Positions 1 to 64,000 of a DNA stretch of 64,000 nt are shown here, in pieces (the stretch's first letter is position 1; every line of letters begins with the position of its first letter). The notes under the pieces are model-generated. The model searched no databases, was not told where the DNA came from, and saw only the letters and a list, made by a program, of their open reading frames with translations. This DNA comes from Trueperaceae bacterium (GTDB lineage: Bacteria > Deinococcota > Deinococci > Deinococcales > Trueperaceae), in assembly GCA_965223585.1 (NCBI GenBank), contig CBDCWW010000010.1, forward strand, positions 55,165-119,164, in the 5' to 3' direction. The position numbers and the translations under genes are program-made.

Positions 1-74
1 CTATCCCCTTTACAGATATACCACCAGACATAGCACCAGCTGTTAGTGAGATTAAGATTTTACAACGTAGCACC

Positions 75-2090
75 TTGAATAATAAGGGTATACAAACCAG
101 TGCTAGTCTAAGCCCGAATGACATAATAGGAGAGCTAGGGAAAATCTCAGTGAGTCAATCTGGGAAAAATCAATGGCACAATCTTACATTTGCTGAACCC
201 TTTCAAGATCCCGTAGTAATTATGCAACCATTGTCATATAATGCAGGAGATCCAGCATTAATAAGACTAAGAAGTGTAACAGGTACAGGGTTTGAGTTTC
301 AAATAGACGAATGGGATTACTTAAATGGTAAGCACGGTACAGAAGTAGTGTCCTATATAGCTATGGAAACAGGCCTGTGGATAAATGGTTTAGTTTATGA
401 GGTAGGAAAAGTACAAACAAATCACAGATTTGAGGATGTCACCTTGAAGTATCCTTTTTCTCCTAGTGCAACAGTGCTAACCCAAGTACAGACTCTTAAT
501 GGAGAATCAGCAGTAACAACCAGACAAGAACCAATAACAGGAGGGTTTAGGGTAAAGGTACAAGAAGAAGAAGCAAGTGGCAGCCATACTCAAGAAGAAA
601 TAGGTTACATAGCAATATTGTCGGGGGAAGGGCCATTTGGTAAGTTTAGAGTACTAAGTGGAGAAACAAGCCCAGTAGTAAGCCACAATTGGCACACAAT
701 AAACTATGATTATAGCGCCCCAACTTTTGGGGAGGCGTATTTTGTAGGGAATATGCAAACCTACTTAGGGGCAGACCCAACGGCAGTGCGCTACCGGAAC
801 CTAGATTCTGATAGTGTACAAGTAAGAGTAGAGGAAGAAAAGTCAGCAGATACAGAGACTAACCACCCCAATGAATCTGTAGGGTATTTACTACTAAGAC
901 AAGCAGGGTTTGATGAAAGTAAGTTAACAGCTTTTGATGGGGCAGCTGATGACTGGTTTGGCCGCTCTGTAGCCATATCAGGAGATACTGTGGTGGTAGG
1001 AGCTTTCCTTGATGATGATAAAGGTAGTAGATCAGGTTCGGCCTACATATATGAACGCAGTGCTATAGGTAAGTGGGTACTGGTAAAGAAAATCCTAGCC
1101 TCTGATGGTGCAGCTGGTGACAGGTTTGGCGCCTCTGTAGCCATATCAGGAGATACTGTGGTGGTAGGGGCTGAGTTTAATGATGTTAAAGGTAATGATT
1201 CAGGTTCAATCTACATATTTGATCGCAATGAGGATGGTTCCGACAACTGGGGGCAGGTCACGAGAATAGTAGCCTCTGATGGTGCAGCTGGTGACAGGTT
1301 TGGCGCCTCTGTAGCCATATCAGGAGATACTGTAGTGGTAGGCGCTCGATTCGATGATGATAACGGCATTGGTTCAGGTTCAGCCTACATATATGAGTAT
1401 GAGCACGGTGGTGCTATAGGTAAGTGGGTACTGGTAAAGAAAATACTAGCCTCTGATGGTGCAGCTGATGACTTCTTTGGCACATCTGTAGCCATATCAG
1501 GAGACACTGTGGTGGTAGGAGCTCATAGAGATGATGATAACGGCACTGAATCAGGTTCAGCCTATATATTTGATCGCAATGAGGGCCGTCCCAATAACTG
1601 GGGTGAGGTCGAGAAAATACTAGCCTCTGATGGTGCAGCTCGTGACAGGTTTGGTCGCTCTGTAGCCATATCAGAAGATACTGTGGTGGTAAGCTCAGAT
1701 GATAACAGCACTTCTTCAGGTTCAGCCTATACATTTGATCGCAATAATGGTGGTCCCCATAACTGGGGCGAAGTCGAGAAAATACTAGCCTCTGATGGTG
1801 CAGCTGATGACTTCTTTGGCACATCTGTAGCCATATCAGGGGATATCGTGATTATAGGAGCCAGTGCAGATGATGATAAAGGTAATAATTCGGGTTCAGC
1901 CTACACATTTGATCGCAACGAGGGTGGTCCCGACAACTGGGGTGAGGTTACGAAAATACTAGCCTCTGATGGTGCAGCTGGTGACAGTTTTGGCTCGTCT
2001 GTAGCCATATCAGGAAATACTGTGGTGGTAGGAGCTCGATTCGATGATGATAACGGCTTTTTTACAGGTTCAGCCTATATATTTGAGTAG
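75..2090 (+). CDS. Surface/secreted beta-propeller protein with about seven FG-GAP-like repeats; probably 5'-truncated by the window edge
   Basis: 671-aa ORF. The C-terminal ~380 aa are ~55-aa repeats (ASDGAAGDRFGxSVAISGDTVVVGAxxDDDxGxxSGSAYIF). The N-terminal part has three ~100-aa internal repeats. The frame has no stop back to nt 3, so the TTG at 75 may not be the true start. Confidence 0.7.
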   Translation: MNNKGIQTSASLSPNDIIGELGKISVSQSGKNQWHNLTFAEPFQDPVVIMQPLSYNAGDPALIRLRSVTGTGFEFQIDEWDYLNGKHGTEVVSYIAMETGLWINGLVYEVGKVQTNHRFEDVTLKYPFSPSATVLTQVQTLNGESAVTTRQEPITGGFRVKVQEEEASGSHTQEEIGYIAILSGEGPFGKFRVLSGETSPVVSHNWHTINYDYSAPTFGEAYFVGNMQTYLGADPTAVRYRNLDSDSVQVRVEEEKSADTETNHPNESVGYLLLRQAGFDESKLTAFDGAADDWFGRSVAISGDTVVVGAFLDDDKGSRSGSAYIYERSAIGKWVLVKKILASDGAAGDRFGASVAISGDTVVVGAEFNDVKGNDSGSIYIFDRNEDGSDNWGQVTRIVASDGAAGDRFGASVAISGDTVVVGARFDDDNGIGSGSAYIYEYEHGGAIGKWVLVKKILASDGAADDFFGTSVAISGDTVVVGAHRDDDNGTESGSAYIFDRNEGRPNNWGEVEKILASDGAARDRFGRSVAISEDTVVVSSDDNSTSSGSAYTFDRNNGGPHNWGEVEKILASDGAADDFFGTSVAISGDIVIIGASADDDKGNNSGSAYTFDRNEGGPDNWGEVTKILASDGAAGDSFGSSVAISGNTVVVGARFDDDNGFFTGSAYIFE

Positions 2091-2435
2091 GTGCACCTAC
2101 TAACGGAAAAAGATATTTCTTTTCATTTGAGAAACGTGTTTAAGCGGTGACATGAAGACTGAGTGGCTTGAATTAAAGCTTATAAGCAGGAGTGTAAAAG
2201 TTTTTGTGAATAACTCAGGAGTAATCAGTGCCTATAGGTAGTTAGTAACCAGAAGTCAGTAGCCAGCATAGTAAATCCCTACTGACTACCAGCTACTGGA
2301 TTCTAGCTACTACTTTAAATTCCAAACGGAAATTCATAAGTATTTATGCATGGATCCTTATTGGAACAGTAACAAGCTTATTCTTGACATGAAACAGAGG
2401 CTCAAAAAAAGTTAGAATCAGCAAAGGAGAAATCG

Positions 2436-2840
2436 ATGAGAAAAAAAGTAGGTTTGTGGATTGATCATAGAGAAGCTATTATTGTGGCTATTACAGACAA
2501 AGGAGAAGAAATAAAGCTGATACCATCGGAGGTTGAAAGTCAGCCCCGCCGTTCTGGTGATTCACCTCTTAAAGGTCCTTATGATGTACAGCAGGTACCA
2601 GCAGATAGTAGACGCCTTAGAGCATTTACGGAACATCTCAATGGTTACTATGATTCAGTAATTGCATCTATTGGTGATGCAAAATCAATTCTAATATTTG
2701 GTCCGGGTGAGGCAAAGACCGAGTTAAAAAAACGCCTTGAAAAAAACCACCTTGGTGAGAACATTGTAGGCGTTGAAACAGCCGACAAGATGACAGATAA
2801 TCAGATAGCAGCGAAAGTTCGACAACACTTTGCTAAGTAG
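2436..2840 (+). CDS. Hypothetical protein; possible mini eRF1/Pelota-like fold (tentative)
   Basis: 134-aa ORF with an AAAGGAG SD upstream of the ATG. The FGPGEAKTELKKRL motif resembles the GPGxxK element of eRF1/Pelota domains, which is a weak basis. Confidence 0.45.
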   Translation: MRKKVGLWIDHREAIIVAITDKGEEIKLIPSEVESQPRRSGDSPLKGPYDVQQVPADSRRLRAFTEHLNGYYDSVIASIGDAKSILIFGPGEAKTELKKRLEKNHLGENIVGVETADKMTDNQIAAKVRQHFAK

Positions 2841-2859
2841 GAGTATAGCTGTTATATAG

Positions 2860-3005
2860 TACTTCAGAAAATTTTTTCTCTAGGGAAAACCCCCTCTGTG
2901 AGCATGTCATTCTGAGGAGTATAACCCTTACGAGGGTAAACTTGAAGAATCTCTAAGGGCATTAACGCATGGGAGATCCTTCGCTGCGCTCAGGATGACA
3001 TTCCT
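2860..3005 (+). repeat. MITE/REP-like long-hairpin repeat, copy A (complete)
   Basis: GTCATTCTGAGGAG ... GAAGAATCTCTAAGGGCATTAACGCATGGGAGATCCTTCGCTGCGCTCAGGATGAC, with arms that are inverted repeats. Related copies lie at 35503-35665 (inverted) and 62841-62965. Confidence 0.7.
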
Positions 3006-3074: not shown

Positions 3075-4118
3075 TTACTTGGTTAGTGCTAGTGATTGTC
3101 TTGTCTTTCTGTAAAGTAACCAAGTAGACAATGGCCCTAAAGCAAAGTTTATGTAGTAGGTTAACAGCCTCCATAAAAGTATAGGACTTGCCAATAGTAT
3201 TGCCTCAACTTGCCTTGTCCTAAGACTCCAACCAATGGCTATCTCTACAAAACCCGAACCACCGGGGGTAGGCATGATGCTGCTTAGTAGATTGATAATG
3301 TTCAATGAAGTAAGGATGTTAAGCAGTAAAGTGTGAACATCAAAGAGGACAAGTAATCCCCAAAGTAAGGTTGAGCGTGACAGCCATCCCAGCATTGTGA
3401 GTAGCTGAAGGCTAAGGCGTTGGAGTACAGATATATCACTAAAACGGGTTACGCTTTGTTGATAGTCTCGAGCAATATGTAAAGTGCGCTTCTCAAAATG
3501 CTTAGTCAAAGCTCTGAACAACGGCAAATTACCAAAGCGTGATAGCAAAGGCCTACTCAGCTTCAGTAAAAAGCTTAGTGTTATACCTAGAAGAAATAAC
3601 AAGATGCTTAGTGCAAGCACTAAGTATGAGACAGTGGGTGGCAAACTAAGCATCCCTGTACTGAAAACATAAAGGACGCTGAGGGGTACTAGAAATGCGA
3701 AATAAGCGAGATCAAGTAATATTAGCTGTGCCACAAGGCCAATTCCAGCTCCTAAAGGTAGACCCAACTTTTGCAGTGCAAGGATAAGTACTGGAACACC
3801 ACCCAGCTTGCCCGGCATTATCAAAGCTCCAAAGTTAGTTGAAAGCTGAACCATGAAACTTGTTAAAATAGATAGTTGAAGACCTTGATAGGCACAAAGG
3901 AGCTTGAGGCGCAATACAGGAAAAAACCAATAGGTTAAGAGTATAATGAGACAGAAAGCAATTATGCTAGGCTCGAGATTCCTAAGGTGATAGGTCTCAG
4001 CAGAAAGCAGTGCTGGACCCACCAACCAGTATAAAGCTAGCAACCCCAAACCAAAACTAAGACTTAGCACAGTAAGACTTCGCCACAAAGCTTTGTGGCT
4101 TAAAAGTTTGCTAATCAT
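3075..4118 (-). CDS. Polytopic membrane protein, UPF0104 / lysyl-PG synthase TM-region-like (flippase-like) family
   Basis: 347 aa with multiple TM segments. PGKLGGVPVLILALQKLGLPLGAG...LLD resembles the conserved P..GG...L...G motif of this family. Confidence 0.5.
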   Translation of the reverse strand: MISKLLSHKALWRSLTVLSLSFGLGLLALYWLVGPALLSAETYHLRNLEPSIIAFCLIILLTYWFFPVLRLKLLCAYQGLQLSILTSFMVQLSTNFGALIMPGKLGGVPVLILALQKLGLPLGAGIGLVAQLILLDLAYFAFLVPLSVLYVFSTGMLSLPPTVSYLVLALSILLFLLGITLSFLLKLSRPLLSRFGNLPLFRALTKHFEKRTLHIARDYQQSVTRFSDISVLQRLSLQLLTMLGWLSRSTLLWGLLVLFDVHTLLLNILTSLNIINLLSSIMPTPGGSGFVEIAIGWSLRTRQVEAILLASPILLWRLLTYYINFALGPLSTWLLYRKTRQSLALTK

Positions 4119-5005: not shown

Positions 5006-5608
5006 ATGAATAAATTAAATGGTAAAACCAAAACCTTAAGCATTCTCTCTATTCTATTATTTTGTTTCTTGGCCACAATAGCATATGGTCAAGAATTTAA
5101 ACTCCCTCGAGGTGGAGAACCCATGAGCAATATTGATCTTCCGGGATCAGATATTGCCCACTTCATATGGGGTGCTCCTGCAGCAGGAATGTTGGATCTT
5201 CGACAAAATCAATGTTCTGAAGCCTGTTGGCAAAACAAGGATTGTGTGGCATGGACTTATGTAAGGCCTAACACAATCCAAGGCCCAGAGGGTAACTGCT
5301 GGCTAAAAAACAGTGTGCCAGAAAAGGTAGTTAACAATTGTTGCGTATCTGGTACGATAGGTGAAGCAAACACAGATAGACTAGGTGGCGATTACACTCA
5401 TTTTGACAATATTATGGGGCTTGATGTAACTCCTCAGCTTTGCCAAACAACCTGTCAAAACGAGACTCAATGCAAAGCATGGACGTTTGTAAAACCGAAC
5501 ACAATCCAAGGTCCCAAAGGCGTGTGTTGGCTAAAAGACACTATACCACCACCAGTAGAGAGTAATTGCTGCATATCTGGTTATTTCGAAATACAGATCA
5601 TTAGATAA
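5006..5608 (+). CDS. Secreted protein with two PAN/Apple-like (PAN_4-type) domains
   Basis: Signal peptide present. Two repeats of C..C...C.AWT(Y/F)V.PNTIQGP.G.CWLK....CC(V/I)SG. Confidence 0.65.
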   Translation: MNKLNGKTKTLSILSILLFCFLATIAYGQEFKLPRGGEPMSNIDLPGSDIAHFIWGAPAAGMLDLRQNQCSEACWQNKDCVAWTYVRPNTIQGPEGNCWLKNSVPEKVVNNCCVSGTIGEANTDRLGGDYTHFDNIMGLDVTPQLCQTTCQNETQCKAWTFVKPNTIQGPKGVCWLKDTIPPPVESNCCISGYFEIQIIR

Positions 5609-5727: not shown

Positions 5728-6495
5728 ATGCGTATAAACAAATTGTTTTTTGTAGTTATCGTTGTTTTTTCTATAATGGGTGTATTATCCATGGGAGCAA
5801 TCGCTTCTTGGGGATTGGCTGGAGATATCCCTGTTGCAGGAGACTTTAATCGTGACGGGAGCGGTGATAGAGCAGTTTTCCGCCCTTCCAACAACACTTG
5901 GTACTTTGATTATGATTTTGATGATATCACAAACGACAGGATTAGCCCTTGGGCCTTAAGAGGCGATCTGCCAATTGCTGGAGACTTTGACAGAGATGGT
6001 CATCGAGATGATATTGCTGTTTTTCGTCCATCCAATCGCACTTGGTACTATGATTTTGATCATGATGGCACCACTGATGAGAGAGTTGATCCTTGGGCTA
6101 TAGATGGCGATCTGCCAATTGCAGGGGATTTTGATAGAGATGGCCAATATGATGATGTAGCAGTTTTTCGTTCATCTGATCGTACTTGGTACTATGATTT
6201 TGACCATGATGGCACCACTGATGAGAGATTTAGTCCTTGGGCTATAGATGGCGATTTGCCATTTGCAGGGGATTTTGATAGAGATGGTCAATACGATGAT
6301 GTAGGAGTTACTCGAGCGTCAAATACTACAAAGTATGTTGACCTTGACCACAACGGTTCTACCGATGGCACAGGATCAGCTAGTACAGGCGAAGAAAATT
6401 GTTACCCAGTAGTAATATCCAGATCTTGGGGAGATACCATAGATATCTTCTGTAACGGTACTTGGTGGGCTCCAGATCCAGATAGTCAGTATTGA
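5728..6495 (+). CDS. Secreted FG-GAP/VCBS-like repeat protein
   Basis: Signal peptide present. Four repeats of [40 protein letters not shown]. Confidence 0.65.
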
Positions 6496-7431: not shown

Positions 7432-8109
7432 ATGGTTACACAGAAAACCTTACAGAAAGACTCAAAACATAACAGTCTGGTACACATCCCACTAGATGAT
7501 TTGCTGCTGGAAGGCAATCTTACTGTTCCTGAAGGGGCAAAGGGTTTGGTGATATTTGCTCATGGTAGCGGCAGCAGCCGTCACAGCCCGCGCAACCGCT
7601 ATGTTGCTGAAGTACTGAATGATCAAAAACTAGCTACATTGCTGATCGACCTGCTTTCACAGAAAGAAGAAGAAATTGATTTGCGAACGCAGCATCTCCG
7701 TTTTGATATTCCCATGCTGGCACAACGGTTGGTGGGTATTGCTAATTGGGTGGAAAGCAATCCTAATATCAAACATCTAAAGATTGGCTATTTTGGCTCG
7801 AGCACTGGCGGTGGTGCAGCATTGATTGCCGCTGCTAAAAAACCAGAGCATATTGCTGCTGTTGTGTCGCGTGGAGGCAGGCCAGATTTAGCTGGGGAAT
7901 ACCTGCCCCAAGTTAAAGCTCCCACTTTGCTGATCGTTGGCGAACGTGATCCGCAGGTCATTGCGCTTAATAAACAGGCATTGGCACATCTGAACGACCT
8001 GTCCAAGCTGAATATCATCCCGCATGCCACACATCTTTTTGAGGAACCGGGAACTTTAGAGGATGTTGCACATCTTGCAGCAGAATGGTTTAAGAAGTAT
8101 TTAGAGTAG
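7432..8109 (+). CDS. Dienelactone-hydrolase-like alpha/beta hydrolase
   Basis: 225 aa with HGSGSSRHSPRN, a nucleophile elbow GSSTGG, and a C-terminal H in IPHATHLFEEPG. Confidence 0.65.
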   Translation: MVTQKTLQKDSKHNSLVHIPLDDLLLEGNLTVPEGAKGLVIFAHGSGSSRHSPRNRYVAEVLNDQKLATLLIDLLSQKEEEIDLRTQHLRFDIPMLAQRLVGIANWVESNPNIKHLKIGYFGSSTGGGAALIAAAKKPEHIAAVVSRGGRPDLAGEYLPQVKAPTLLIVGERDPQVIALNKQALAHLNDLSKLNIIPHATHLFEEPGTLEDVAHLAAEWFKKYLE

Positions 8110-8303
8110 ATTATATTGTTTTCAAACCAAGAAGCCTAGCCAGAGAAAAGCAATAGTTCTTTTATTCAAGCTCGAGAAAAGAAACTACTAGCTTGGTTGA
8201 AATCAGCTTCAAATCAGTGATGTGATTTATATTGCCTTAGTGGGAACGAGCATCACTGGAATTTCGGATGATCTTCTACAGGATCATATCTAAGGAGCAA
8301 GTT

Positions 8304-9125
8304 ATGATAGGTGTTATTAAGCGCCATCCAGTCAGAAGCTACTTTGCTTTGGCCTTTACCATTTCTTGGATCGGCAGCCTGATCGTGGGTGGTGCAAAAT
8401 TACTCCGAGGAGAGTCTTTAAATCCAAATGATCTTTGGCTCATGGGCCTGTTCATGGTAGCCGGACCCAGTGTGGCAGGCATCCTCATGACCTATCTTAC
8501 TGAGGGAAAAAAGGGTCTTCAGGATTTGCTTTCCCGAATGACAAAATGGCAAGTGGGTGTACGCTGGTACAGTGCGCTACTAATTTTCCCGTTTTTTGTT
8601 TTGCTTGTATTACTAACCTTCGCCAAGCTAGTCTCTCCAGAATTTACCCCTACCTTCTTTGCCATTGGCATCTTGATGGGTCTTTTTGCTGGCTTCATTG
8701 AGGAGATCGGTTGGATGGGCTTTGCGTTTCCTAAAATGCAAGTGAAATACAGTATCTTAAGTGCCACACTTTATCTGGGGTTCTTACATGCACTGTGGCA
8801 TATTATGGCAAGCTTTCTAGGAAGCTTTGCAATCTTTGGTGAGTATTGGTTACCCTATTTTCTTGGATTTTCCCTGTTTGTCATAGCCTTGCGTGTCCTT
8901 ATAGTATGGGTTTACATTAACACTAGAAGCCTTTTATTAGCCCAGCTTATGCACGCTAGTTCGACAGGATTTTTATCTATTCTTGTACCCATGACTATGG
9001 CACCCGTCTATTGGACTATTTTTTATTCTGTTTATGCTCTTGTTTTGTGTGCTATTGCTGCGCTTGTCATATCAAGGTATGGTAAAACTTTGGTGCAACA
9101 TTCTAATAAAGAAAGTCAAGCGTAA
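8304..9125 (+). CDS. CPBP family (CAAX/Abi-type) intramembrane metalloprotease
   Basis: EEIGWMGF and LHALWH motifs; polytopic. Start moved to the ATG at 8304, which is preceded by AAGGAG. Confidence 0.7.
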   Translation: MIGVIKRHPVRSYFALAFTISWIGSLIVGGAKLLRGESLNPNDLWLMGLFMVAGPSVAGILMTYLTEGKKGLQDLLSRMTKWQVGVRWYSALLIFPFFVLLVLLTFAKLVSPEFTPTFFAIGILMGLFAGFIEEIGWMGFAFPKMQVKYSILSATLYLGFLHALWHIMASFLGSFAIFGEYWLPYFLGFSLFVIALRVLIVWVYINTRSLLLAQLMHASSTGFLSILVPMTMAPVYWTIFYSVYALVLCAIAALVISRYGKTLVQHSNKESQA

Positions 9126-9129
9126 GATA

Positions 9130-10023
9130 ATGGTAAGGCTTTCATTCCTGTTAAAACTGTTGAGTATTCTCATTCTTATCGACTTTACCATTGCTGTTTA
9201 TCTACTCATTATCCGCCCTTGGCAGCTGCACTGGGGTGCTACTGCTGAGGAAGTAGCTCGAACCATGCTGAGTGATGAACTTGTACTCGAGCCAACTTTC
9301 CGAGCCACTAGGGCTGTTACTATCAAAGGTAGCCCAGCAGACATCTGGCCTTGGCTGGTACAGATGGGCTATGGCCGGGCTGGCTTTTACGGCTATGATC
9401 TAATTGAAAATCTTGGCAGTGAACGGGGCTTAAGAAGTGCCGAGCGTATCCTTCCTGAACTGCAAGCATTAGCAGTGGGTGACACCGTGCCCATTAGTGC
9501 CATCTCAACTTTGATTATTCAAGATATGGAACCCAACGAATTCCTTGTTTGGGTCGATGGTTCAACCCCTCCCAGCATTGCATTTGCTTGGGTTTTAGCT
9601 CCTGTTGACAAAAGCCATACCCGCCTAATCAATCGTGTCCGCTTTCGACATCATTGGAATGAGCCTTGGATCATCATCGACCTGTTTACGGATTTCGCTG
9701 ACCACGTTGCAGTGCGAAAAGTTCTACTGGGTATTAAGGATCGGGTGGAAGGCAGGGTTGAACCGATGATCATTCAAAATATTGAAATAGCACTTTGGAC
9801 AGTGGCTTTCATAGCATTTATCATTGCCCTTATCTTAGTCTTTACCCATAAATCATGGTGGCGCAATTGGTTGCTTGCGCTGGCAGCTGCAACCATCCTG
9901 CTCATTACCCTGTATGTGCACCCACCACTTTGGCTTGGGATTTTCTTAGAAGTGCTACTCCTTACTGGCCTAGTTTGGTCATACCGAACCTCGCCAAGCC
10001 TTGGGAAGGCAGTGTCTTCATAG
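9130..10023 (+). CDS. Membrane-anchored protein with SRPBCC-like central domain (tentative)
   Basis: The ATG at 9130 lies just after the previous stop. N-terminal TM segment, a soluble domain (ADIWPWLVQMGYGRAGFYGYD), and C-terminal TM segments. Confidence 0.4.
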   Translation: MVRLSFLLKLLSILILIDFTIAVYLLIIRPWQLHWGATAEEVARTMLSDELVLEPTFRATRAVTIKGSPADIWPWLVQMGYGRAGFYGYDLIENLGSERGLRSAERILPELQALAVGDTVPISAISTLIIQDMEPNEFLVWVDGSTPPSIAFAWVLAPVDKSHTRLINRVRFRHHWNEPWIIIDLFTDFADHVAVRKVLLGIKDRVEGRVEPMIIQNIEIALWTVAFIAFIIALILVFTHKSWWRNWLLALAAATILLITLYVHPPLWLGIFLEVLLLTGLVWSYRTSPSLGKAVSS

Positions 10024-12877: not shown

Positions 12878-12942
12878 GCCTAGCGCCCCTTGTAATATTG
12901 TGGCGATATTGCAGCAGCATGTGAGACAGTGAAAGGCAAACT

Positions 12943-51549: not shown

Positions 51550-51588
51550 CTGTGCCTTTACCACCTTCTGACTAGCTTGGAGGATTCT

Positions 51589-54022: not shown

Positions 54023-54127
54023 TGGCGAATCCTCCCAAACTAATCGAAAATAACCATCCAAGGCCGCTACTTACATTGAAGCTCGAGCTAATTAGGCTGA
54101 ACGATATTGTGATTTCTATTTAACTAC

Positions 54128-56249: not shown

Positions 56250-56379
56250 TATGTCAGGAAAAGTCCTACATAACTTATCAGAGTTTTACCGATTAGCTAG
56301 AAAAAGTGAACAAATAAAATTAAGGTGCTTTAGGCAGCAAGTTTTTTTAAGCACACTACTTCTTTGGAAGGAGAACGTC
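56250..56379 (+). promoter_or_regulatory. Dispersed upstream cassette, copy 7
   Basis: TATGTCAGGAAAAGTCCTACATAACTTATCAGAGTTTTACCGATTAGCTAGAAAAAGTGAAC...TTTTTAAGCACACTACTTCTTTGGAAGGAG, then the ATG at 56380. Confidence 0.7.
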
Positions 56380-57207
56380 ATGCAAGATAAAAACATACTG
56401 ATAACAGGTGGGACCTCTGGTATGGGTAAAGCAACGGCTGAGCACCTTGCCCAAATGGGTGCACAACTCCTATTAATGAGTCGCAACTCTGAAAAAGGGG
56501 AAGCGGCTGCAAGCGAGATTCGCCGCACTAGCGGCAATGACAAAGTCACTTTTGTAAAGGCTGACCTGTCGCTCTTGAGTGAAATGCGACAAGCTGCAGA
56601 CAATGTCCGACAAAGATTTGATAGGCTCGATGTTCTAATACACGCTGCAGGCGGTTCCTTTCCTCCAGAGCGTGCGCTAACCAGTGAAGGCCTCGAGCTA
56701 AACTTTGCTGTCCAGTACCTAGCCCGCTTTGTCCTAACCAATGAACTGCTTGAATTGTTAAAGGCAACCCCCGCACCACAGGTGCTAAGTCTTGCTGGAG
56801 GTTCTACCATCTCGGGTCAGGTAGATTTTGACAACCTCCAAGGCGAAAAAAAATACAATAAATTTGGATCAATAGCCAACTCTTCACGACTAAATGACCT
56901 ACTCACACTCGAGCAGATAGCCCACTACCCTGAAATCACCTTCTATAATTATGGCCCGGGGTTAGTGCGAACTGCGACTATCATGATATCTTCGTTTGCG
57001 CGCCTATTCTTCAACACTGTAGGACGCCCCTTCACTAGGTCAGCCGAACGAGCAGCCAAGGACATGGTGATGCTCCTAACAGGTGACTATCCCAGTGGTT
57101 TTTACGGGCGTTCTCTAAAACGCAATGAACCCTCAGAAACAGCAGATACTGCCTCGTGTGAAAGGCTTTGGAAGTACAGTGAAACCCTAGTTGAACAGAT
57201 CAAATAA
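56380..57207 (+). CDS. SDR-family oxidoreductase
   Basis: TGGTSGMGKATA Rossmann motif. Start at the ATG at 56380 after GGAAGGAG. The ORF-track N-terminal extension is the cassette read through. Confidence 0.8.
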   Translation: MQDKNILITGGTSGMGKATAEHLAQMGAQLLLMSRNSEKGEAAASEIRRTSGNDKVTFVKADLSLLSEMRQAADNVRQRFDRLDVLIHAAGGSFPPERALTSEGLELNFAVQYLARFVLTNELLELLKATPAPQVLSLAGGSTISGQVDFDNLQGEKKYNKFGSIANSSRLNDLLTLEQIAHYPEITFYNYGPGLVRTATIMISSFARLFFNTVGRPFTRSAERAAKDMVMLLTGDYPSGFYGRSLKRNEPSETADTASCERLWKYSETLVEQIK

Positions 57208-57268: not shown

Positions 57269-57739
57269 ATGATTATTCTCCAAGACAAAGTCGACATAAA
57301 CACCTCAACTGAGGCTGTATTCGAGTGGCTCGAGCACTTCTGTGAGCATTATCGTGAGTGGCATCCCAGTCATGTGTCGTGTTGCTACCTGCGTGGTAGC
57401 GGGTTACAAGTCAGCACAATTATCCAAATCGAAGAAACTTTGCATGGGAAACTGCATAGATTGCGCCTCCTAGTCACAGAAGTCATTCCCGGCACTCGCG
57501 TAGCGTACCGCATTGCTCCCGGGATGAAGGGTGCCTTCGAGGTAAAGTCAAAAGCTAGCAAGATCTGCTTTGTAGCCACTATCACCATAGGAATCAGATT
57601 TCCCCTACTCGAAGGCCTCATTGATGCGTTACTCTGGAGGGTTTTGGCATCTAGGCTCGCAGCTCTACAAGAGCATATGGCTGAAGAAGGCAAAAACCTT
57701 AAGCGTCTTTTGGAACAGCCTTCAGAATCCCCTAAATAA
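57269..57739 (+). CDS. SRPBCC-superfamily (polyketide cyclase/dehydrase-like) protein
   Basis: 156 aa. N-terminal I.....VFEWL......EWHP pattern and size. Confidence 0.5.
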   Translation: MIILQDKVDINTSTEAVFEWLEHFCEHYREWHPSHVSCCYLRGSGLQVSTIIQIEETLHGKLHRLRLLVTEVIPGTRVAYRIAPGMKGAFEVKSKASKICFVATITIGIRFPLLEGLIDALLWRVLASRLAALQEHMAEEGKNLKRLLEQPSESPK

Positions 57740-58778: not shown

Positions 58779-59798
58779 TTAGGCTTTATTATTATGCTCC
58801 AAAGTTACAACCACGCTTCCCTTTTTATGCCCCGCTTCAACATACCTATGAGCCTCAGCAGTTTGTTCTAAAGGATAGCACCTATCAATCACCGTTTTTA
58901 TCGCCCCCTTCTCAGCAAGATCTTTAATGACCATGAGGCCTTCTATCTTTTCGTTTGACAACGCACAGATAACTTTCTTACTGCTAAATACTGAAGTCCA
59001 TAGCATCTGAACAAGCTGCCTTGTCTTAAAACTGGCTAAAAGGTAGCGCCCATTAGGTGTTAAAGAGTTTTTACAACGCAAAAACGACGATTTACCTAAA
59101 ATATCAAAGATCAAGTCATAGGTCTCACCGCTTTGGGTAAAATCCTCTTTGGTGTAATCAATAACTTTATCCGCACCTAAAGCTTTCACTAGCTCTACTC
59201 TTGGAGTACTGCATACCCCTGTCACATTTGCACCATAGTGTTTGGCAAGCTGTACAGCTGCTGACCCTATCCCTCCTGACGCACCATTGATAAGGACCTT
59301 TTGACCGGGTTGAATGTTCACTTTTCTGAGGAGATTAAGTGCGGTTAGTGCTCCATAAGGCACAGCAGCAGCTTCGGCGTAGCTCATATTGGTGGGTTTG
59401 AGTGCTACTAAGCCATCTTCAGGCATACATAGATACTCGGCATTCGCACCCATTTTAGAACCGCGATAGGCAAAAACTTGGTCACTTACTTTAAACTTCG
59501 TAACATCTTTGCCTACAGCTTCAATTTCCCCGGCTAGCTCACCACCCAAGATTGTTTTGTTTTTCCTTGGTTTGTTAAAGCCGAACTCGAGCCTTGCAGG
59601 AAGCCATAGGGGTGTAGGCATAGAAAAGGTGCGAGGCGTGAATTTTCTTTTGATGTCTCTAACAGTAATATCCCCAAAGTTTACGGGTGTTGCACGTACT
59701 CTTATCAGGATTTCATTGTCCTTCGGGGTGGGTTTAGCGATCTCTTTGAGTTTAAGGACATCGGGTGACCCATATTCGGTAAATACAATTGCTTTCAT
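58779..59798 (-). CDS. MDR-superfamily NAD(P)-dependent oxidoreductase
   Basis: NGASGGIGSAAVQLAK. The ATG at 59798 follows GAGGAAA. Confidence 0.8.
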   Translation of the reverse strand: MKAIVFTEYGSPDVLKLKEIAKPTPKDNEILIRVRATPVNFGDITVRDIKRKFTPRTFSMPTPLWLPARLEFGFNKPRKNKTILGGELAGEIEAVGKDVTKFKVSDQVFAYRGSKMGANAEYLCMPEDGLVALKPTNMSYAEAAAVPYGALTALNLLRKVNIQPGQKVLINGASGGIGSAAVQLAKHYGANVTGVCSTPRVELVKALGADKVIDYTKEDFTQSGETYDLIFDILGKSSFLRCKNSLTPNGRYLLASFKTRQLVQMLWTSVFSSKKVICALSNEKIEGLMVIKDLAEKGAIKTVIDRCYPLEQTAEAHRYVEAGHKKGSVVVTLEHNNKA

Positions 59799-59806
59799 GT
59801 TTTTCC

Positions 59807-60064
59807 TCAACTTTCTTTAACTTGTTTTATGAATTCATCCTCGGGCTCAAAAGAAAAAACCTCTTCTAGTGGCAAGCTAAAAACATAAGCAATGCGAAAT
59901 GCCAAATCTAGTGTTGGAGAGTATCTTCCTTTTTCAATAGCGACAATGGTTTGCCGTGTTACCCCCACTTTGTCTGCCAATTGCTGTTGGGTCATTTCAT
60001 CAAAGTGAAAGCGCAATTTCCGCACATTGTTGCTCACTCGGTGTTTACTATCTTTTTTACCCAT
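59807..60064 (-). CDS. XRE-family HTH transcriptional regulator (YozG-like)
   Basis: MTQQQLADKVGVTRQTIVAIEKGRYSPTLDLAFRIA. Confidence 0.8.
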   Translation of the reverse strand: MGKKDSKHRVSNNVRKLRFHFDEMTQQQLADKVGVTRQTIVAIEKGRYSPTLDLAFRIAYVFSLPLEEVFSFEPEDEFIKQVKES

Positions 60065-60523: not shown

Positions 60524-60745
60524 TCAATGGTTTATGACTTGCTGATACACCGAATACTCCACTTCTTTATTGTGGTTGTAAGGTGCGACAGATTGCTTTA
60601 AAGATTCCTCTTGTGATGACTTGATGTTCTTAGCTGGCAAAGGGCGGTAGTCAACAGGAGTACCCTCTATTCGGAAAATGAAAACTCCTACAGCAGACCA
60701 GAACTGCTCGAGTTTAGTAAGTACTTTGTTATTTGTGAGTTTCAT
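60524..60745 (-). CDS. Hypothetical small protein (73 aa)
   Basis: ORF from the ATG at 60745, lying between the permease and the DUF2178-like gene. Weak SD. Confidence 0.35.
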   Translation of the reverse strand: MKLTNNKVLTKLEQFWSAVGVFIFRIEGTPVDYRPLPAKNIKSSQEESLKQSVAPYNHNKEVEYSVYQQVINH

Positions 60746-60756: not shown

Positions 60757-61617
60757 CTAGTTCGTGTTTTTGTTGTTGTAAAGGTGCATGGTTAGTGGCG
60801 CAAAGATTGCAATAAGCACAGTGCAAGACACCAATACGGACACAATCTGCATGGTCGTTGCCTGTCCATGCATCAAACTGCGTACTGCCGTGGCAGTAAG
60901 GCTAACAGGATTGATATTCACCAAGGGTTGCAAGAATGCTGGCATGGTCGTGGGATCAACAAACACGTTGCTGATGAAGTTCAGTGGGAACGAAATAAGG
61001 GAAGTCAGCATTGAAACCGACTTTGGATCATTCATCAGTAAGCCGACTGCCGTCCAAATCCATGACAAGCTAAAGGCAAAGACCAGCACCAGCAGTAGAG
61101 ACCACAAAACACCACTAAGGCTAGCTTCTGGACGAAAGCCCAAACTTAGACCTAGCACTAAGACGACCAAGAACGCTGTTGTGTACCGCACCATATCGCC
61201 CAATAGTGCACCGACAAGCACTGCAGGTCGCCAAAAGGGGAGTGAGCGAAAACGGTCAAAGATACCGTTAGAAATGTCTGCATTGAGTCCAATTGCTGTG
61301 TACATGGTAATCATCACAACAGTCATGACAAGAATGCCCGGAATGAGTGGCTGTAAATAATCCTTGACGGAACCAGCTAGCGCCCCACCAAAGATATAGC
61401 TAAACATCAGGGTCAGCAAAATCGGAAACAACGTGACATCAATGAATTGTGAAGGTACATGTTTGAGTTTGAGGAGGGAGCGCCAACCAAGGCTTAGGGA
61501 TGCTGACCAGGCACTTGGACGGGCAGGATTTCCTTGGGTTTTGGTCATAGAAGTTAACACTTGCTTATCAACGATGTTGGGCAGGGTGACATCTAGTGCA
61601 GTATGGATGTTACTCAT
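60757..61617 (-). CDS. ABC-2 type transporter permease (DrrB-like)
   Basis: 286 aa with 6 TM segments. 4-nt overlap with the upstream ATPase gene. Confidence 0.75.
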   Translation of the reverse strand: MSNIHTALDVTLPNIVDKQVLTSMTKTQGNPARPSAWSASLSLGWRSLLKLKHVPSQFIDVTLFPILLTLMFSYIFGGALAGSVKDYLQPLIPGILVMTVVMITMYTAIGLNADISNGIFDRFRSLPFWRPAVLVGALLGDMVRYTTAFLVVLVLGLSLGFRPEASLSGVLWSLLLVLVFAFSLSWIWTAVGLLMNDPKSVSMLTSLISFPLNFISNVFVDPTTMPAFLQPLVNINPVSLTATAVRSLMHGQATTMQIVSVLVSCTVLIAIFAPLTMHLYNNKNTN

Positions 61618-62582
61618 ACTATAAGATCCTTTCTGGTGTTTATGTTATTGTTTGTTACCTCTCCTGTGAGGGCAAGGAATACGTCATCAAGACTGGGTTG
61701 CTCGAGCGCAAACTCTGCTAAACCGACCTCTGCCTGTGATAGTGCCGTAATGGTGTTTGCCAATCTTTCAGAGTCGGAAACCTGTGCTGAAAGTGTTGTA
61801 GGATCGGGTTCACGTTGGGCTGCTATACCCAGTGTCTGTAAGACAATCTGCTCAGCTAACGTCCGCTCGTCAGCATGATTCAAGCGTAGTCTTAAAACAC
61901 CTGAGCCAACCGACGCTTTGAGCTGGCTGGGCATACCATCGGCAATAATTGTGCCGTGGTCGATGATGACAATGCGGTCAGCAAGCTCATCGGCTTCTTC
62001 TAAATACTGCGTGGTTAGCAGCACTGTGGTGCCTGCCGAGCGTAGGTTGCGAATAACATCCCATATATAACGGCGACTTCTAGGATCAAGCCCTGTAGTT
62101 GGTTCATCGAGAAAGAGCAGGTCAGGTGACACTATTAGACTTGCTGCAATATCAAGGCGACGTCGCATTCCACCTGAGTAGTGCTTGACTTGGCGCTTGG
62201 CCGCATCTGTTAGACCAAAAGCCTGAAGTAAGCCAGATGCTCGAGTCCTAGCATTTACCCATCCATAGCCCAGTAACCGTGCCACCAACATCAAATTTTC
62301 CAGTCCTGATAGTTCATCATCAACAGAGGCAAATTGCCCCGTCAAACTCACCCGACGACGTACTGCATCTGCATCTGTAATCACGTCATGTCCAAAAATC
62401 CGTACTATACCTGTGTTAAAACGGAGCAAGGTTGCTAGAATACGGACCGTGGTGGTCTTGCCAGCACCGTTTGGACCTAGCAAGGCAAGCAAACTTCCAC
62501 GTTTCACCGCTAAGTTGATGCCCTTCAAAACATTAACCCTGCCGTAGGATTTGTGTAAGTCAGAAACTTCAATGGCATTCAT
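61614..62582 (-). CDS. ABC transporter ATP-binding protein (DrrA-like)
   Basis: GPNGAGKTT, LSGGMRRRLDIA, LFLDEPTTGLD. The ATG at 62582 follows GGAGG. Confidence 0.85.
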   Translation of the reverse strand: MNAIEVSDLHKSYGRVNVLKGINLAVKRGSLLALLGPNGAGKTTTVRILATLLRFNTGIVRIFGHDVITDADAVRRRVSLTGQFASVDDELSGLENLMLVARLLGYGWVNARTRASGLLQAFGLTDAAKRQVKHYSGGMRRRLDIAASLIVSPDLLFLDEPTTGLDPRSRRYIWDVIRNLRSAGTTVLLTTQYLEEADELADRIVIIDHGTIIADGMPSQLKASVGSGVLRLRLNHADERTLAEQIVLQTLGIAAQREPDPTTLSAQVSDSERLANTITALSQAEVGLAEFALEQPSLDDVFLALTGEVTNNNINTRKDLIV

Positions 62583-62695
62583 GACTTTCCTCCATACTTG
62601 TTTGATGCTTTGTTGCCTTGTGCCATTGTGATGACGATTTTGTCTCGAGCGCATTTTGTCTCGAGATAGCTAGAGTGTTTTCCTTGAGAGGACAT
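62579..62695 (-). CDS. Candidate 38-codon upstream ORF translationally coupled to the DrrA-like gene
   Basis: Hand translation gives MSSQGKHSSYLETKCARDKIVITMAQGNKASNKYGGKS. AAGGAG lies 5 nt upstream. Its TGA overlaps the ATPase ATG (ATGA). Confidence 0.35.
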   Translation of the reverse strand: MSSQGKHSSYLETKCARDKIVITMAQGNKASNKYGGKS

Positions 62696-62840
62696 GTTTT
62701 CTCCTTGATGTATATATTTGCTTACCTTAAGTAAGCTTATTCATACATAGAGTAATATAAAATATACTTAATGTCAAGTAATCTTTACATTTGATATACA
62801 AAACAAGCCTCTGACGCCTTTCCTGAATGTTTAAATATAC

Positions 62841-62965
62841 TCCAGAAAAGTTTTTTGCCTAGAGAGAAACCCCCTCTGTGAGCATGTCATTCTGAGGATC
62901 TTGGTTCTTACAGGATAAACTACGAAGAATCTCTAAGGGCATTAACGCACGAGAGATCCTTCGCA
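62841..62965 (+). repeat. MITE/REP-like long-hairpin repeat, copy C (3' arm truncated)
   Basis: Matches 2860-2985 and then lacks the closing TGCGCTCAGGATGAC arm. Confidence 0.65.
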
Positions 62966-63004
62966 TAATTTACCCTAGAGCAATTGATGTATTGGAAGTT
63001 GTAA

Positions 63005-63976
63005 TTATTTATGCTGACTTTCTTTCAAGACAACGTTTACTAATAATTCCTGATACTTCTCTTTTTCTTCTATCATTGGGAAGTGTGCTGAGTTTTCAAA
63101 AATGATAAGTTTTTTGCCTTTTTCGGCGTTTAGACTATTATAAAAATCTTTAACAAGAACAGTAGGCGTAATCATGTCATATTTACCTACAAAAAAGTAG
63201 ATGGGGGCTTTTATGGAATGTATTTCATTTGTGAGGTTAACGTTTTGTATCTCCTCCCACCTAGCCTTCACAGTAAAATTCAATCCTTTCCCTCTCATCG
63301 TGTTAATTCCTTCTGATAGAGAATACTCAGGTGAAGTCAAATAGTTTAGCCAGAAACCTACCATTTGTTTAATAGGATTATCACGGATGAATCCTCCATA
63401 TCGACCAATATACCTAGCTTTTTCAAACTCTTTTTTTGGTGTTTCATAGGGTGGAGGTCCCACTGCTTTTATTTTCTCTTGTATTTTCATGTCTCCAAAT
63501 TTTTCAGCTTCTTCAACAACATAATTAAACGACTGCCTTTGTTGTTCACAGTCGTTAATAACCTGTGACACACCTACATAAGCATGTACTTTTTCTGGGT
63601 ATCTATGTGCCGTTTTAATGCCAATCGGTGTTCCACCTGAGTGGGCAACAAGAAAAACTTTTTGGGTGTTAAATCTGTTTCGCAAATAATCAATTAACGC
63701 ATTACAATCTTCAACCATTCGATCAAAAGTCATTGAGTGAACTGGGATATCACGATGATATGACTTGCCTGCGCCTCGTTGATCCCAATGAACGACTGTA
63801 AAGTGTTTAATTAACTCAGCATCTAACTTGCGTGAGCTTGACATGGCTGCCACTGGTTCGCCGGGGCCGCCATGCAAGAATAGTAAAACTGGATTGCTTT
63901 GATCTATACCTCTGATAAATATCCATTGTTTCAAACCGCCTAGCGGTATCTCCTCTAATGAGCTTATGCCATTCAA
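63005..63976 (-). CDS. Alpha/beta hydrolase (proline iminopeptidase-like); 5' end may lie beyond the window
   Basis: LFLHGGPGEP and the nucleophile elbow AHSGGT. The frame stays open from 63976 to nt 64000. Confidence 0.7.
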   Translation of the reverse strand: MNGISSLEEIPLGGLKQWIFIRGIDQSNPVLLFLHGGPGEPVAAMSSSRKLDAELIKHFTVVHWDQRGAGKSYHRDIPVHSMTFDRMVEDCNALIDYLRNRFNTQKVFLVAHSGGTPIGIKTAHRYPEKVHAYVGVSQVINDCEQQRQSFNYVVEEAEKFGDMKIQEKIKAVGPPPYETPKKEFEKARYIGRYGGFIRDNPIKQMVGFWLNYLTSPEYSLSEGINTMRGKGLNFTVKARWEEIQNVNLTNEIHSIKAPIYFFVGKYDMITPTVLVKDFYNSLNAEKGKKLIIFENSAHFPMIEEKEKYQELLVNVVLKESQHK

Positions 63977-64000
63977 GGCTTTAATCTTAGTTGAATTTTT

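Follow-up and report, generated by a model that had tools for sequence, protein, structure and literature searches.

Why does the palindrome CTCGAG recur so often in the DNA of a Trueperaceae bacterium? The question arises from a stretch of 64,000 nucleotides (nt) of contig CBDCWW010000010.1 (positions 55,165 to 119,164), called the window in the following. A preliminary description made from its sequence had noticed many copies of CTCGAG and of the longer octamer GCTCGAGC, and had likened them to HIP1 (GCGATCGC), the highly iterated palindrome (HIP) of cyanobacteria. For three decades HIP1 has lacked an explanation, and it has passed for a cyanobacterial peculiarity; the ideas about it, namely repair, or else transformation or uptake, that would depend on methylation, rest on correlations within one phylum. 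Our answer is that uncultured Trueperaceae-like Deinococcota have a genuine highly iterated palindrome in CTCGAG, which shows a soft preference for a purine (R) before and a pyrimidine (Y) after it (octamer GCTCGAGC) and is most likely the site of a CTCGAG methyltransferase. We give this reading a probability of about one half.

Results

CTCGAG is the most over-represented hexamer of the window

Exact counting gave 66 copies of CTCGAG and 14 of GCTCGAGC, where the preliminary description had estimated 60-65 and about 14; each octamer lies within about 30 nt of where it had been placed by eye. The GC content, guessed at around 40%, is 41.5%. Base composition (zero order) predicts 10.1 hexamers and 0.44 octamers, in line with the earlier naive expectation of about ten and fewer than one, and Markov models of order 1-3 predict 6.0-14.9 and 0.4-1.0, respectively. 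In 100 dinucleotide-preserving shuffles the hexamer appeared 6.48±2.47 times (maximum 14) and the octamer 0.43±0.67 times (maximum 3). Synonymous codons were moreover shuffled 1000 times within 60 open reading frames (ORFs), which had been called mechanically. These ORFs hold 55 hexamers where 9.5±2.8 are expected (maximum 20, z=16), and 11 octamers where 1.5 are expected. Both kinds of check that had been proposed, Markov models and codon shuffling, thus leave the observed count divided by the expected one (O/E) far above 1. A maximal-order Markov model, which expects 42 hexamers and 17 octamers and makes the excess look small, was dropped in favour of orders 0-3 and the shuffles, because its CTCGA and TCGAG counts consist of the motif itself.

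CTCGAG ranks first among all 4096 hexamers of the window by over-representation, and GCTCGAGC first among octamers. The base that follows CTCGA is G in 66 cases, T in 11, C in three and A in two. GAGCTC, which consists of the same two codons in swapped order, is not enriched in the window (6 against 10.1 expected). The excess of CTCGAG over chance is six- to tenfold at about one site per kb; its density is 1031 per Mb in the window and reaches 2200-2600 per Mb in two related loci (L084 and L087, see below). We are nearly certain that the enrichment is genuine and acts at the DNA level.

The 66 sites, located by exact match, are listed below. As palindromes they carry no strand; the frame is given relative to the named ORF, whose strand stands in brackets.

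3467-3472, CTCGAG, ORF 3075-4118 (-), frame 1
3972-3977, CTCGAG, ORF 3075-4118 (-), frame 0
5106-5111, CTCGAG, ORF 5006-5608 (+), frame 1
6311-6316, CTCGAG, ORF 5728-6495 (+), frame 1
7796-7803, GCTCGAGC, ORF 7432-8109 (+), frame 2
8171-8176, CTCGAG, intergenic, between ORF end 8109 and next ORF start 8268
9286-9291, CTCGAG, ORF 9034-10023 (+), frame 0
12347-12354, GCTCGAGC, ORF 11618-12877 (+), frame 1
12553-12560, GCTCGAGC, ORF 11618-12877 (+), frame 0
13251-13258, GCTCGAGC, ORF 12943-14211 (+), frame 0
13288-13293, CTCGAG, ORF 12943-14211 (+), frame 0
13519-13526, GCTCGAGC, frame 1, paralogue copy of 14815
13655-13660, CTCGAG, frame 1, paralogue copy of 14951
13927-13932, CTCGAG, frame 0, paralogue copy of 15223
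14719-14724, CTCGAG, frame 0, paralogue copy of 16015
14815-14822, GCTCGAGC, ORF 14251-15507 (+), frame 1
14951-14956, CTCGAG, ORF 14251-15507 (+), frame 1
15223-15228, CTCGAG, ORF 14251-15507 (+), frame 0
16015-16020, CTCGAG, ORF 15547-16779 (+), frame 0
16342-16347, CTCGAG, ORF 15547-16779 (+), frame 0
16744-16749, CTCGAG, ORF 15547-16779 (+), frame 0
20406-20411, CTCGAG, ORF 19243-20580 (+), frame 2
21047-21054, GCTCGAGC, inside LolA-like ORF 20493-21344; sister genome reads CTCGAA
22157-22162, CTCGAG, ORF 21354-22652 (+), frame 2; sister genome reads CACGAG
22909-22914, CTCGAG, ORF 22668-23360 (+), frame 1
22984-22989, CTCGAG, ORF 22668-23360 (+), frame 1
23673-23678, CTCGAG, ORF 23363-24718 (+), frame 1
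26979-26984, CTCGAG, ORF 26828-27601 (+), frame 1
29097-29102, CTCGAG, ORF 28731-29957 (+), frame 0
30267-30272, CTCGAG, ORF 30074-31300 (+), frame 1
30716-30721, CTCGAG, ORF 30074-31300 (+), frame 0
30950-30955, CTCGAG, ORF 30074-31300 (+), frame 0
31658-31663, CTCGAG, ORF 31463-32155 (+), frame 0
31790-31795, CTCGAG, ORF 31463-32155 (+), frame 0
31925-31932, GCTCGAGC, ORF 31463-32155 (+), frame 1
32234-32239, CTCGAG, outside ORFs
33214-33219, CTCGAG, ORF 33123-34040 (+), frame 1
33620-33625, CTCGAG, ORF 33123-34040 (+), frame 2
34014-34019, CTCGAG, ORF 33123-34040 (+), frame 0
34506-34511, CTCGAG, ORF 34041-34595 (+), frame 0
34709-34714, CTCGAG, intergenic, with a TetR gene on either side
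35856-35861, CTCGAG, intergenic
41081-41086, CTCGAG, ORF 41032-41655 (+), frame 1
41189-41194, CTCGAG, ORF 41032-41655 (+), frame 1
42314-42319, CTCGAG, outside ORFs
45444-45451, GCTCGAGC, intergenic
45478-45483, CTCGAG, intergenic
46895-46900, CTCGAG, ORF 45673-46932 (+), frame 1
47698-47703, CTCGAG, ORF 47587-48399 (+), frame 0
48325-48330, CTCGAG, ORF 47587-48399 (+), frame 0
49256-49261, CTCGAG, ORF 48737-49576 (+), frame 0
49786-49793, GCTCGAGC, ORF 49586-50449 (+), frame 0
51668-51673, CTCGAG, ORF 51577-52617 (+), frame 1
52107-52112, CTCGAG, ORF 51577-52617 (+), frame 2
52546-52553, GCTCGAGC, ORF 51577-52617 (+), frame 1
52564-52569, CTCGAG, ORF 51577-52617 (+), frame 0
54081-54088, GCTCGAGC, intergenic
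56692-56697, CTCGAG, ORF 56251-57207 (+), frame 0
56908-56913, CTCGAG, ORF 56251-57207 (+), frame 0
57328-57335, GCTCGAGC, ORF 57269-57739 (+), frame 0
59586-59591, CTCGAG, ORF 58779-59810 (-), frame 0
60707-60712, CTCGAG, intergenic
61700-61707, GCTCGAGC, ORF 61614-62654 (-), frame 0
62240-62245, CTCGAG, ORF 61614-62654 (-), frame 1
62644-62649, CTCGAG, ORF 61614-62654 (-), frame 2
62660-62665, CTCGAG, intergenic

Genes and spacers carry the motif alike

Genes on either strand carry CTCGAG, in each of the three frames, as had been noticed before, with 28, 21 and 6 sites in frames 0, 1 and 2, where 5.3, 3.8 and 0.57 are expected. A further 11 sites lie outside the ORF set (0.8-1.6 expected); one of them (21048) is actually inside the LolA-like ORF 20493-21344, which the overlap filter had removed. 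The enrichment in frames 1 and 2 and in non-coding DNA amounts to 5- to 13-fold. By synonymous choice the motif could stand at 98, 61 and 90 positions in frames 0, 1 and 2, and it occupies 29%, 34% and 7% of these. The Leu-Glu dipeptide is not over-represented (98 against 110 expected), and CTC and GAG make up 11% of the leucine and 39% of the glutamate codons. Nevertheless 28 of the 98 Leu-Glu pairs are spelled CTCGAG against 4.2 expected, so that CTC serves in 29% of them. A single dipeptide preference, already judged insufficient in the preliminary description, does not explain this distribution. Since the proteins allow the motif in many places and Leu-Glu is not in excess, the motif is set at the DNA level: our data show that it is written into the DNA via synonymous codon positions and spacers, with the proteins unchanged.

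No more than four site pairs have flanking sequence in common, and these all belong to the tandem permease paralogues (12943-16779); the flanks of the remaining 58 sites are unrelated. This leaves 62 independent sites, and 54 sites lie beyond the permease block, in 60.2 kb. The hallmark of dispersed repeats of the repetitive extragenic palindrome (REP) or miniature inverted-repeat transposable element (MITE) type, an extended common flank, is absent apart from these four pairs. Two findings had been named in advance as fatal to the HIP1-like reading, an O/E near 1 after codon-aware shuffling and an enrichment due to repeated families such as the duplicated permeases. Neither was obtained, because the codon-shuffle excess persists and the permease copies explain few sites.

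The region 11618-16779 is a tandem array of FtsX/MacB-type permease genes. Three copies in it (12943-14211, 14251-15507 and 15547-16779) are close paralogues that repeat about every 1296 nt, a spacing at which four CTCGAG sites recur.

The unit is a hexamer with soft flanks

Directly before the 66 sites stands G in 33 cases, A in 18, C in eight and T in seven; directly after them stands C in 34, T in 14, A in ten and G in eight. Past ±1 the flank profile is flat, and no longer consensus surrounds the sites. The outer G and the outer C are mutually independent (14 joint occurrences against 17 expected). In the window the true unit is therefore the hexamer with soft flanks and not the octamer. 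One-mismatch octamers number 20 at position 1 and 19 at position 8, with 0-3 at each of positions 2-7. One relative, L086, differs in that the octamer dominates, nine of its 12 sites being full GCTCGAGC. We also discarded the tetramer TCGA as the unit, as outside the motif it is neither avoided nor enriched (102 against 113, order-1 model).

The sites of the window are on average 911 nt apart, with a coefficient of variation (CV) of 1.10, which is within the range of random placement. A function that needs regular spacing therefore gains no support. The longest stretch free of CTCGAG, 35862-41080 (5.2 kb, GC skew -0.20), is not significant at one site per kb; it contains an IS200-type Y1 transposase gene at 36663-37151 (-) and the gene of an FG-GAP repeat protein at 37776-39419 (-).

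CTCGAG is enriched in a clade of related genomes

The taxonomy used here is based on the submitters' labels of three metagenome-assembled genomes (MAGs) and on a single-gene tree. The nearest genome, CBDCVN010000013.1 ("MAG: Trueperaceae bacterium", 5.16 Mb), is 88-97% identical to the window at the nucleotide level over 11.4 kb; no more than this aligns because insertion sequence (IS) elements break the synteny. Two regions of this sister MAG hold 10 and 13 CTCGAG sites against 2.9 and 2.7 expected, with 9 and 10 sites in ORFs against 1.6 and 2.7 by codon shuffle. Six sites are shared in the aligned 11.4 kb and three and two are private, numbers too small to judge conservation.

The sister MAG had been reached via amylase homologues, which otherwise led to loci of other phyla. 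Homologues of ORF 21354-22652, which is specific to the lineage, were the better route and yielded further relatives, whose loci contain the same cluster of ATP-binding cassette (ABC) transporter, MacB and LolA-like genes as the window. The counts are given below as observed against expected, those in ORFs by codon shuffle.

L084: GC 52.6%, CTCGAG 47 against 5.7, ORF sites 42 against 11.5±2.9
L087: GC 51%, CTCGAG 32 against 3.1, ORF sites 26 against 5.4
L088: GC 51%, CTCGAG 22 against 2.1, ORF sites 19 against 4.0
L086, "Deinococcales bacterium" GCA_041390515.1: GC 46%, CTCGAG 12 against 4.3, ORF sites 11 against 4.0
L093, "Deinococcota bacterium" GCA_039034155.1: GC 49%, CTCGAG 12 against 2.9, ORF sites 10 against 2.0
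L085: GC 64%, CTCGAG 28 against 7.2, ORF sites 24 against 15.1 (weak)

L087 and L088 encode the same protein P0134 and are 99.6% identical across the 4.9 kb that they have in common. The comparison with sister taxa that had been called for thus extends the finding: the sister MAG and five further Deinococcota-type genomes of 38-53% GC are enriched 2.8- to 10-fold in CTCGAG, and the excess over codon shuffles in these loci is 2.8- to 5-fold. CTCGAG is the top palindrome in L001 and L083 of the sister MAG and in L084, L085, L087 and L088. In a neighbour-joining tree of the protein of ORF 21354-22652 the enriched loci and the window form one clade; L092 (60% GC), which groups with Treponema and spirochaete sequences, is not enriched (2 against 7.7). 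The enrichment is seen in the independent assemblies ERZ25072999 (long contigs), ERZ511480 (SPAdes-style NODE names) and ERZ27241780 (MEGAHIT-style k141 names) and likewise in the NCBI assemblies GCA_041390515.1 and GCA_039034155.1.

For Deinococcota, the GC content of the window and the sister MAG is low (38-41.5%). Both are strongly depleted in CpG (O/E 0.59 and 0.50; CGCG 24 against 51 expected), and CTCGAG is enriched in spite of this deficit. Relatives with the same motif, of up to 53% GC (64% in the weakly enriched L085), show no CpG depletion.

As controls we used 80 metagenome loci with amylase homologues from other phyla. None shows a comparable CTCGAG excess, nor does CTCGAG lead the palindromes of any of the 80; the highest count is 17 against 4.3, at 67% GC (L077). 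The HIP1 core CGATCG served as positive control and was found 66, 18 and 42 times against 4.2, 0.8 and 2.4 expected in three cyanobacterial-type contigs (L049, L059 and L063). HIP1 itself is absent from the window, with no copy of GCGATCGC and three of CGATCG.

Moreover, the first 50 kb of each of three Deinococcota plasmids were analysed. CTCGAG is under-represented about 0.5-fold in the ORFs of Thermus thermophilus HB8 pTT27 (40 sites against 77.6 by codon shuffle) and of Deinococcus radiodurans MP1 (7 against 15.6). Oceanithermus profundus pOCEPR01 (L091) has 121 ORF sites against 57, an excess of about 2.1-fold; its positions 1-50000 hold 133 CTCGAG at 68% GC, 7.8 times the expectation from composition, a rough figure as ORFs were called mechanically in GC-rich DNA. 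O. profundus, a cultivable marine member of the Thermaceae, may carry a milder form of the trait. Because pTT27 and MP1 are under-represented while the clade is enriched, the trait is confined to particular lineages of Deinococcota and is not phylum-wide.

The whole hexamer is favoured

Conservation was assessed in a single pair of genomes, L084 and L087, which are 76% identical over 8.2 kb. Fourteen CTCGAG sites are shared and five and nine are private, that is 67% conserved against a baseline of 20% identical aligned hexamers (binomial p ~4e-6). The motif also persists in genomes that span 38 to 53% GC.

Hexamers that differ from CTCGAG by one mismatch number 131 in the window against about 166 expected (order-1 model), so that decayed copies are not in surplus. 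This bulk analysis was set aside as model-dependent, and as partly similar in the control L092, in favour of a table of Leu-Glu codon pairs. For this table, codons outside Leu-Glu pairs supplied the background frequencies, and a low-GC and a mid-GC set of genomes were used. The synonymous one-step neighbours are given below as observed against expected.

CTCGAA: 1 against 10.1 (low-GC), 1 against 11.7 (mid-GC)
CTGGAG: 0 against 6.3 (low-GC), 2 against 13.7 (mid-GC)
CTTGAG: 7 against 15.2 (low-GC), 7 against 10.9 (mid-GC)
CTAGAG: 6 against 10.3 (low-GC), 3 against 5.8 (mid-GC)

All one-step neighbours are depleted, hence the favoured state is the whole hexamer; as the transversion neighbours are depleted too, T:G repair at a single position is insufficient. 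The two-step neighbours TTAGAG and TTGGAG are far less depleted.

Overall counts of CTGGAG/CTCCAG are strongly reduced both in the mid-GC relatives (4 against 17.5) and in L086 (4 against 11.2), but not in the window (23 against 27). The deficit in the relatives could reflect avoidance of a BpmI/GsuI-type restriction specificity, and it confounds the CTGGAG deficit within the Leu-Glu pairs of these genomes.

The transposase genes of the window and the relatives (10.1 kb) contain no CTCGAG, where about ten would be expected at host density. Overall, our data show a bias that acts on DNA, favours the whole hexamer, recruits its neighbours through transversions and transitions alike and has long been at work in a clade, and that has not (yet) reached mobile genes.

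Neighbouring genes

At 17061-20580 and 28731-32155 there are further pairs of MacB-type genes, each accompanied by ABC ATPases. Four consecutive paralogues of CAAX proteases (Rce1-like, PF02517) occupy 47587-51549, and a fifth is found at 8268-9125. Scans of the window for tRNAs and Rfam families gave no matches.

ORF 21354-22652 and its homologues (P0133-P0213) encode a conserved protein of about 430 amino acids without a Pfam family. The gene always comes after those for an ABC ATPase, for two permeases of the MacB type and for a LolA-like (TP_0789-like) protein, an arrangement that occurs in Deinococcota-type and spirochaete genomes. The protein probably serves this exporter as its outer-membrane or lipoprotein partner. 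In the sister MAG there is a high density of IS elements (DDE_Tnp_1, DDE_5, DDE_Tnp_4 and DDE_3; L083 10752-20783 and L001 8262-15191), one of which cuts the orthologue of this ORF down to 260 amino acids.

An alpha-amylase-family gene at 43291-45237 carries no CTCGAG and is 94% identical to a copy in the sister MAG (L001/L002 10001-11935), which has a different neighbourhood with transposase genes on its flanks. About 160 nt downstream of the gene (45220-45378) match the sister MAG in inverted orientation. This gene may have moved recently.

Discussion

Methylation as a possible cause

In our view CTCGAG very probably represents the same kind of phenomenon as a HIP. Each cyanobacterial HIP, whether HIP1 or an alternate one, is accompanied by a cognate methyltransferase (PMC4390886), and it is for this reason that we infer one here. 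The 6-bp palindrome with its R/Y flanks would suit the target of a dimeric enzyme of the restriction-modification type. A CTCGAG-specific DNA methyltransferase conserved across the lineage would mark the motif, and its density would be upheld by selection or molecular drive acting on the methylated whole motif. A candidate drive is a methylation-dependent preference for DNA of the own species in uptake or recombination, as proposed for HIP1. HIP1 boosts transformation in a way that depends on methylation, and a role as an uptake or recognition sequence has been put forward for it (bioRxiv 10.1101/2024.09.10.611283, 10.64898/2026.06.24.733823). Methylation-directed mismatch correction might add a smaller share; the roughly tenfold deficit of CTCGAA is compatible with a contribution of T:G repair at motif position 1/6. 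CTCGAG-specific m5C (5-methylcytosine) methylation has been documented in Halorubrum (PMC8112702), and in hot-spring communities CTCGAG is among the methylated motifs common to several genomes (bioRxiv 10.64898/2026.06.24.734251).

Several points weigh against this reading. Neither the window (Pfam, 50 ORFs) nor the genes called in some 170 kb of related loci include one for a methyltransferase, Vsr or a restriction enzyme; the suggested search for methyltransferase and Vsr genes thus covered these loci, and the predicted gene did not turn up. As none was seen in the loci examined, the methylation link is drawn by analogy, and we regard a connection with methylation as evenly balanced. Own and foreign DNA would be poorly told apart by a 6-bp motif with an enrichment of about 6- to 10-fold. 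Selective DNA uptake is not known in Thermus and Deinococcus, the competent members of the phylum that have been studied, and a role of CTCGAG in uptake or recombination appears possible but doubtful. The O/E of 32 for GCTCGAGC is below that of typical HIP1 genomes. No regular spacing or periodicity was found, CVs of 1.10, 0.79 and 0.74 all being random-like. The bulk depletion of one-mismatch hexamers varies with the model and is partly seen in the non-enriched L092. Finally, the data comprise the 64,000 nt of the window and pieces of 8-22 kb of each relative.

Other explanations

The excess might also be a functionless by-product of methylation-directed very-short-patch or mismatch repair alone, in which an m5C or m4C (N4-methylcytosine) mark and a Vsr-like or "GmeC-dependent" activity (Elhai model) turn T:G mismatches into the motif. 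In E. coli, Vsr drives an excess of CCWGG and a deficit of CTWGG, a well-established case of this kind. In accordance with such repair, the C1/G6 transition variant CTCGAA is the most depleted synonymous neighbour (1 against 10.1 and 11.7), TTCGAG/CTCGAA stands at 1 against 8.5 in L086, the outer G and C yield GC...GC ends like those of HIP1, and the random spacing would fit an opportunistic process. However, the transversion neighbour CTGGAG is equally drained (0 against 6.3, 2 against 13.7) and CTAGAG is low, which T:G-specific repair cannot bring about, and in the bulk analysis the C3-to-T neighbour shows no more than a mild deficit in the window and none in the mid-GC relatives. Repair at one position should moreover leave other decay products in surplus, and none was seen; nor was a Vsr or methyltransferase gene found in the window or the related loci. 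The Vsr effect in E. coli is far below 6- to 10-fold. Repair as the sole cause is therefore, in our opinion, unlikely.

A DNA-uptake or recombination-enhancing sequence that is independent of methylation and spreads by biased gene conversion, like the uptake signal sequence (USS) and the DNA uptake sequence (DUS), would account for the replacement of every one-step neighbour, an outcome to be expected if recombination replaces alleles. The lack of sites in transposase genes, the positions conserved among relatives and the density of about one per kb, the same as for USS and DUS, point in this direction too. There are naturally competent genera among the Deinococcota. A function in transformation has been proposed for HIP1 as well (in the two preprints cited above). 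On the other hand, known uptake sequences are asymmetric and 9-12 nt long, whereas a 6-bp palindrome is low in information, and both model replicons, pTT27 and MP1, are without enrichment. We know of no uptake specificity in Thermus or Deinococcus. We consider this alternative improbable.

If an abundant dimeric DNA-binding protein, for example one for nucleoid structure or for chromosome repair and reassembly, bound CTCGAG and selection kept its sites, this would explain a palindromic motif with conserved positions and the apparent selection on the whole motif. The sites are nevertheless mainly intragenic and randomly spaced, they lack an extended flank consensus, and CTCGAG ranks among the classical specificities of restriction-modification systems. 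We know of no candidate protein, and this possibility seems quite remote.

Codon usage, a codon-pair bias or a Leu-Glu preference, possibly as a relic of a GC-rich ancestor that favoured CTC and GAG, is hardly credible. Frame 0 does hold 34 of the 42 ORF sites in L084 and 21 of 26 in L087, and CTC-GAG is common in GC-rich Thermaceae through composition. Yet the excess survives synonymous shuffling at 3.7- to 5.8-fold and extends to frames 1 and 2 and to non-coding DNA, GAGCTC is not enriched, CTC is far more frequent in Leu-Glu pairs than elsewhere (29% against 11%), and a decaying relic would leave one-mismatch copies, which are lacking. For the window, codon shuffles and compartment counts refute the explanation by codons or dipeptides.

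A repeated gene family, a short mobile element or a sequencing or assembly artefact could be invoked for the four site pairs in the tandem permease paralogues, but is refuted by the unrelated flanks of the other 58 sites, by mobile genes without the motif, and by the enrichment of relatives in independent assemblies from different software and projects, with reading frames intact at the sites.

Implications

Returning to CTCGAG as a methylated HIP of these Deinococcota, an independent second origin of HIPs in a non-photosynthetic phylum, with GC-TCGA-GC or CTCGAG kept at 1-2.6 sites per kb, can be put forward only tentatively, at a little less than even chances. A second lineage with another core sequence and the same anatomy would be an independent replicate, and the presence of enriched members beside non-enriched model relatives allows one to ask which genes (methyltransferase, Vsr, competence, pilus) track the enrichment in both phyla. 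If the reading is true and a conserved orphan methyltransferase for CTCGAG, perhaps for TCGA, goes with it, HIPs would be a general, convergent saturation of the genome by a methylated palindrome, and their function could be approached by comparing two unrelated phyla. The enrichment predicts a methylation motif that can be checked in existing long-read data. Furthermore, CTCGAG can serve as a compositional marker when these MAGs are binned or checked for foreign DNA.

Relation to HIP1 and other iterated motifs

The preliminary description knew of no CTCGAG-type HIP. Our literature searches agree: no description came up when full texts were searched for CTCGAG or GCTCGAGC in combination with iterated or over-represented palindromes and with Deinococcus. 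As regards its HIP1-like reading, all the sequence-level properties by which HIP1 and the alternate HIPs are defined (Elhai 2015, PMC4390886) are present: CTCGAG is the top oligomer, has the density of a HIP and a codon-independent excess in all frames and in non-coding DNA, and the ends of the octamer are soft; it is also missing from transposase genes, keeps its positions between diverged relatives and is common to a clade. All HIP cases so far have a cyanobacterial host; this is not so here, the relatives being labelled Trueperaceae, Deinococcales and Deinococcota.

The XhoI/PaeR7I/PspXI-type restriction-modification specificity is the same sequence, CTCGAG. The bias in the window against T before and A after the site (7 and 10 of 66) resembles the PspXI specificity VCTCGAGB. 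A genome normally avoids the targets of its resident restriction systems, whereas CTCGAG is enriched here. The excess of Dcm sites (CCWGG) driven by Vsr in E. coli is alike in that a methylation-type palindrome is over-represented and its transition neighbour, here CTCGAA/TTCGAG, under-represented. In contrast, the effect here is ten times larger and is not restricted to the neighbours with T for the methylated C: the transversion neighbours CTGGAG and CTAGAG are low together with CTCGAA and CTTGAG.

With the USS of Pasteurellaceae and the DUS of Neisseriaceae, CTCGAG shares the density of about one per kb, the synonymous spread in coding DNA, the positional conservation and the scarcity in recently acquired or mobile DNA (0 against about 10 in transposase genes). 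Unlike the 6-bp palindrome CTCGAG, these sequences are 9-12 nt long and non-palindromic and often form terminators in pairs, and their receptor is known.

Closest are the HIPs themselves. The alternate HIPs (GGCGCC in Calothrix PCC 7103, GCsGC, rCCGGy and GGGATCCC; PMC4390886) are, like CTCGAG, GC-rich palindromes confined to lineages, with a hexamer core and looser flanks, and they dominate the k-mer spectrum at about 1000-2000 per Mb, where CTCGAG reaches 1.0-2.6 per kb. The top 8-mer of Calothrix has an O/E of 53, similar in size to the 32 of GCTCGAGC. CTCGAG differs from them in its Deinococcota host, in its TCGA centre and a hexamer of 67% GC, and in that it has not replaced an ancestral HIP1; a cognate methyltransferase accompanies every cyanobacterial case and is putative here. 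HIP1 is stronger, with 300-2700 octamers per Mb and an O/E of 55-228 against 219 per Mb for GCTCGAGC, which is roughly a weak HIP1. It also differs in that the hexamer is the unit in the window (with L086 as an exception) and in that no periodicity was detected. The architecture is the same, GC followed by a 4-bp palindrome and GC (GC-GATC-GC in HIP1, GC-TCGA-GC here), and the variation of HIP1 is likewise biased to the first and last nucleotides of the octamer (PMC4390886). Both motifs occur in all frames and in spacers, are depleted in mobile genes and are conserved at orthologous positions (PMC5861425), the above-background conservation described for HIP1 (Xu et al. 2018, PMC5861425) being found here between L084 and L087. 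Taken together, this suggests that CTCGAG is a second example, outside the cyanobacteria, of the unexplained HIP phenomenon.

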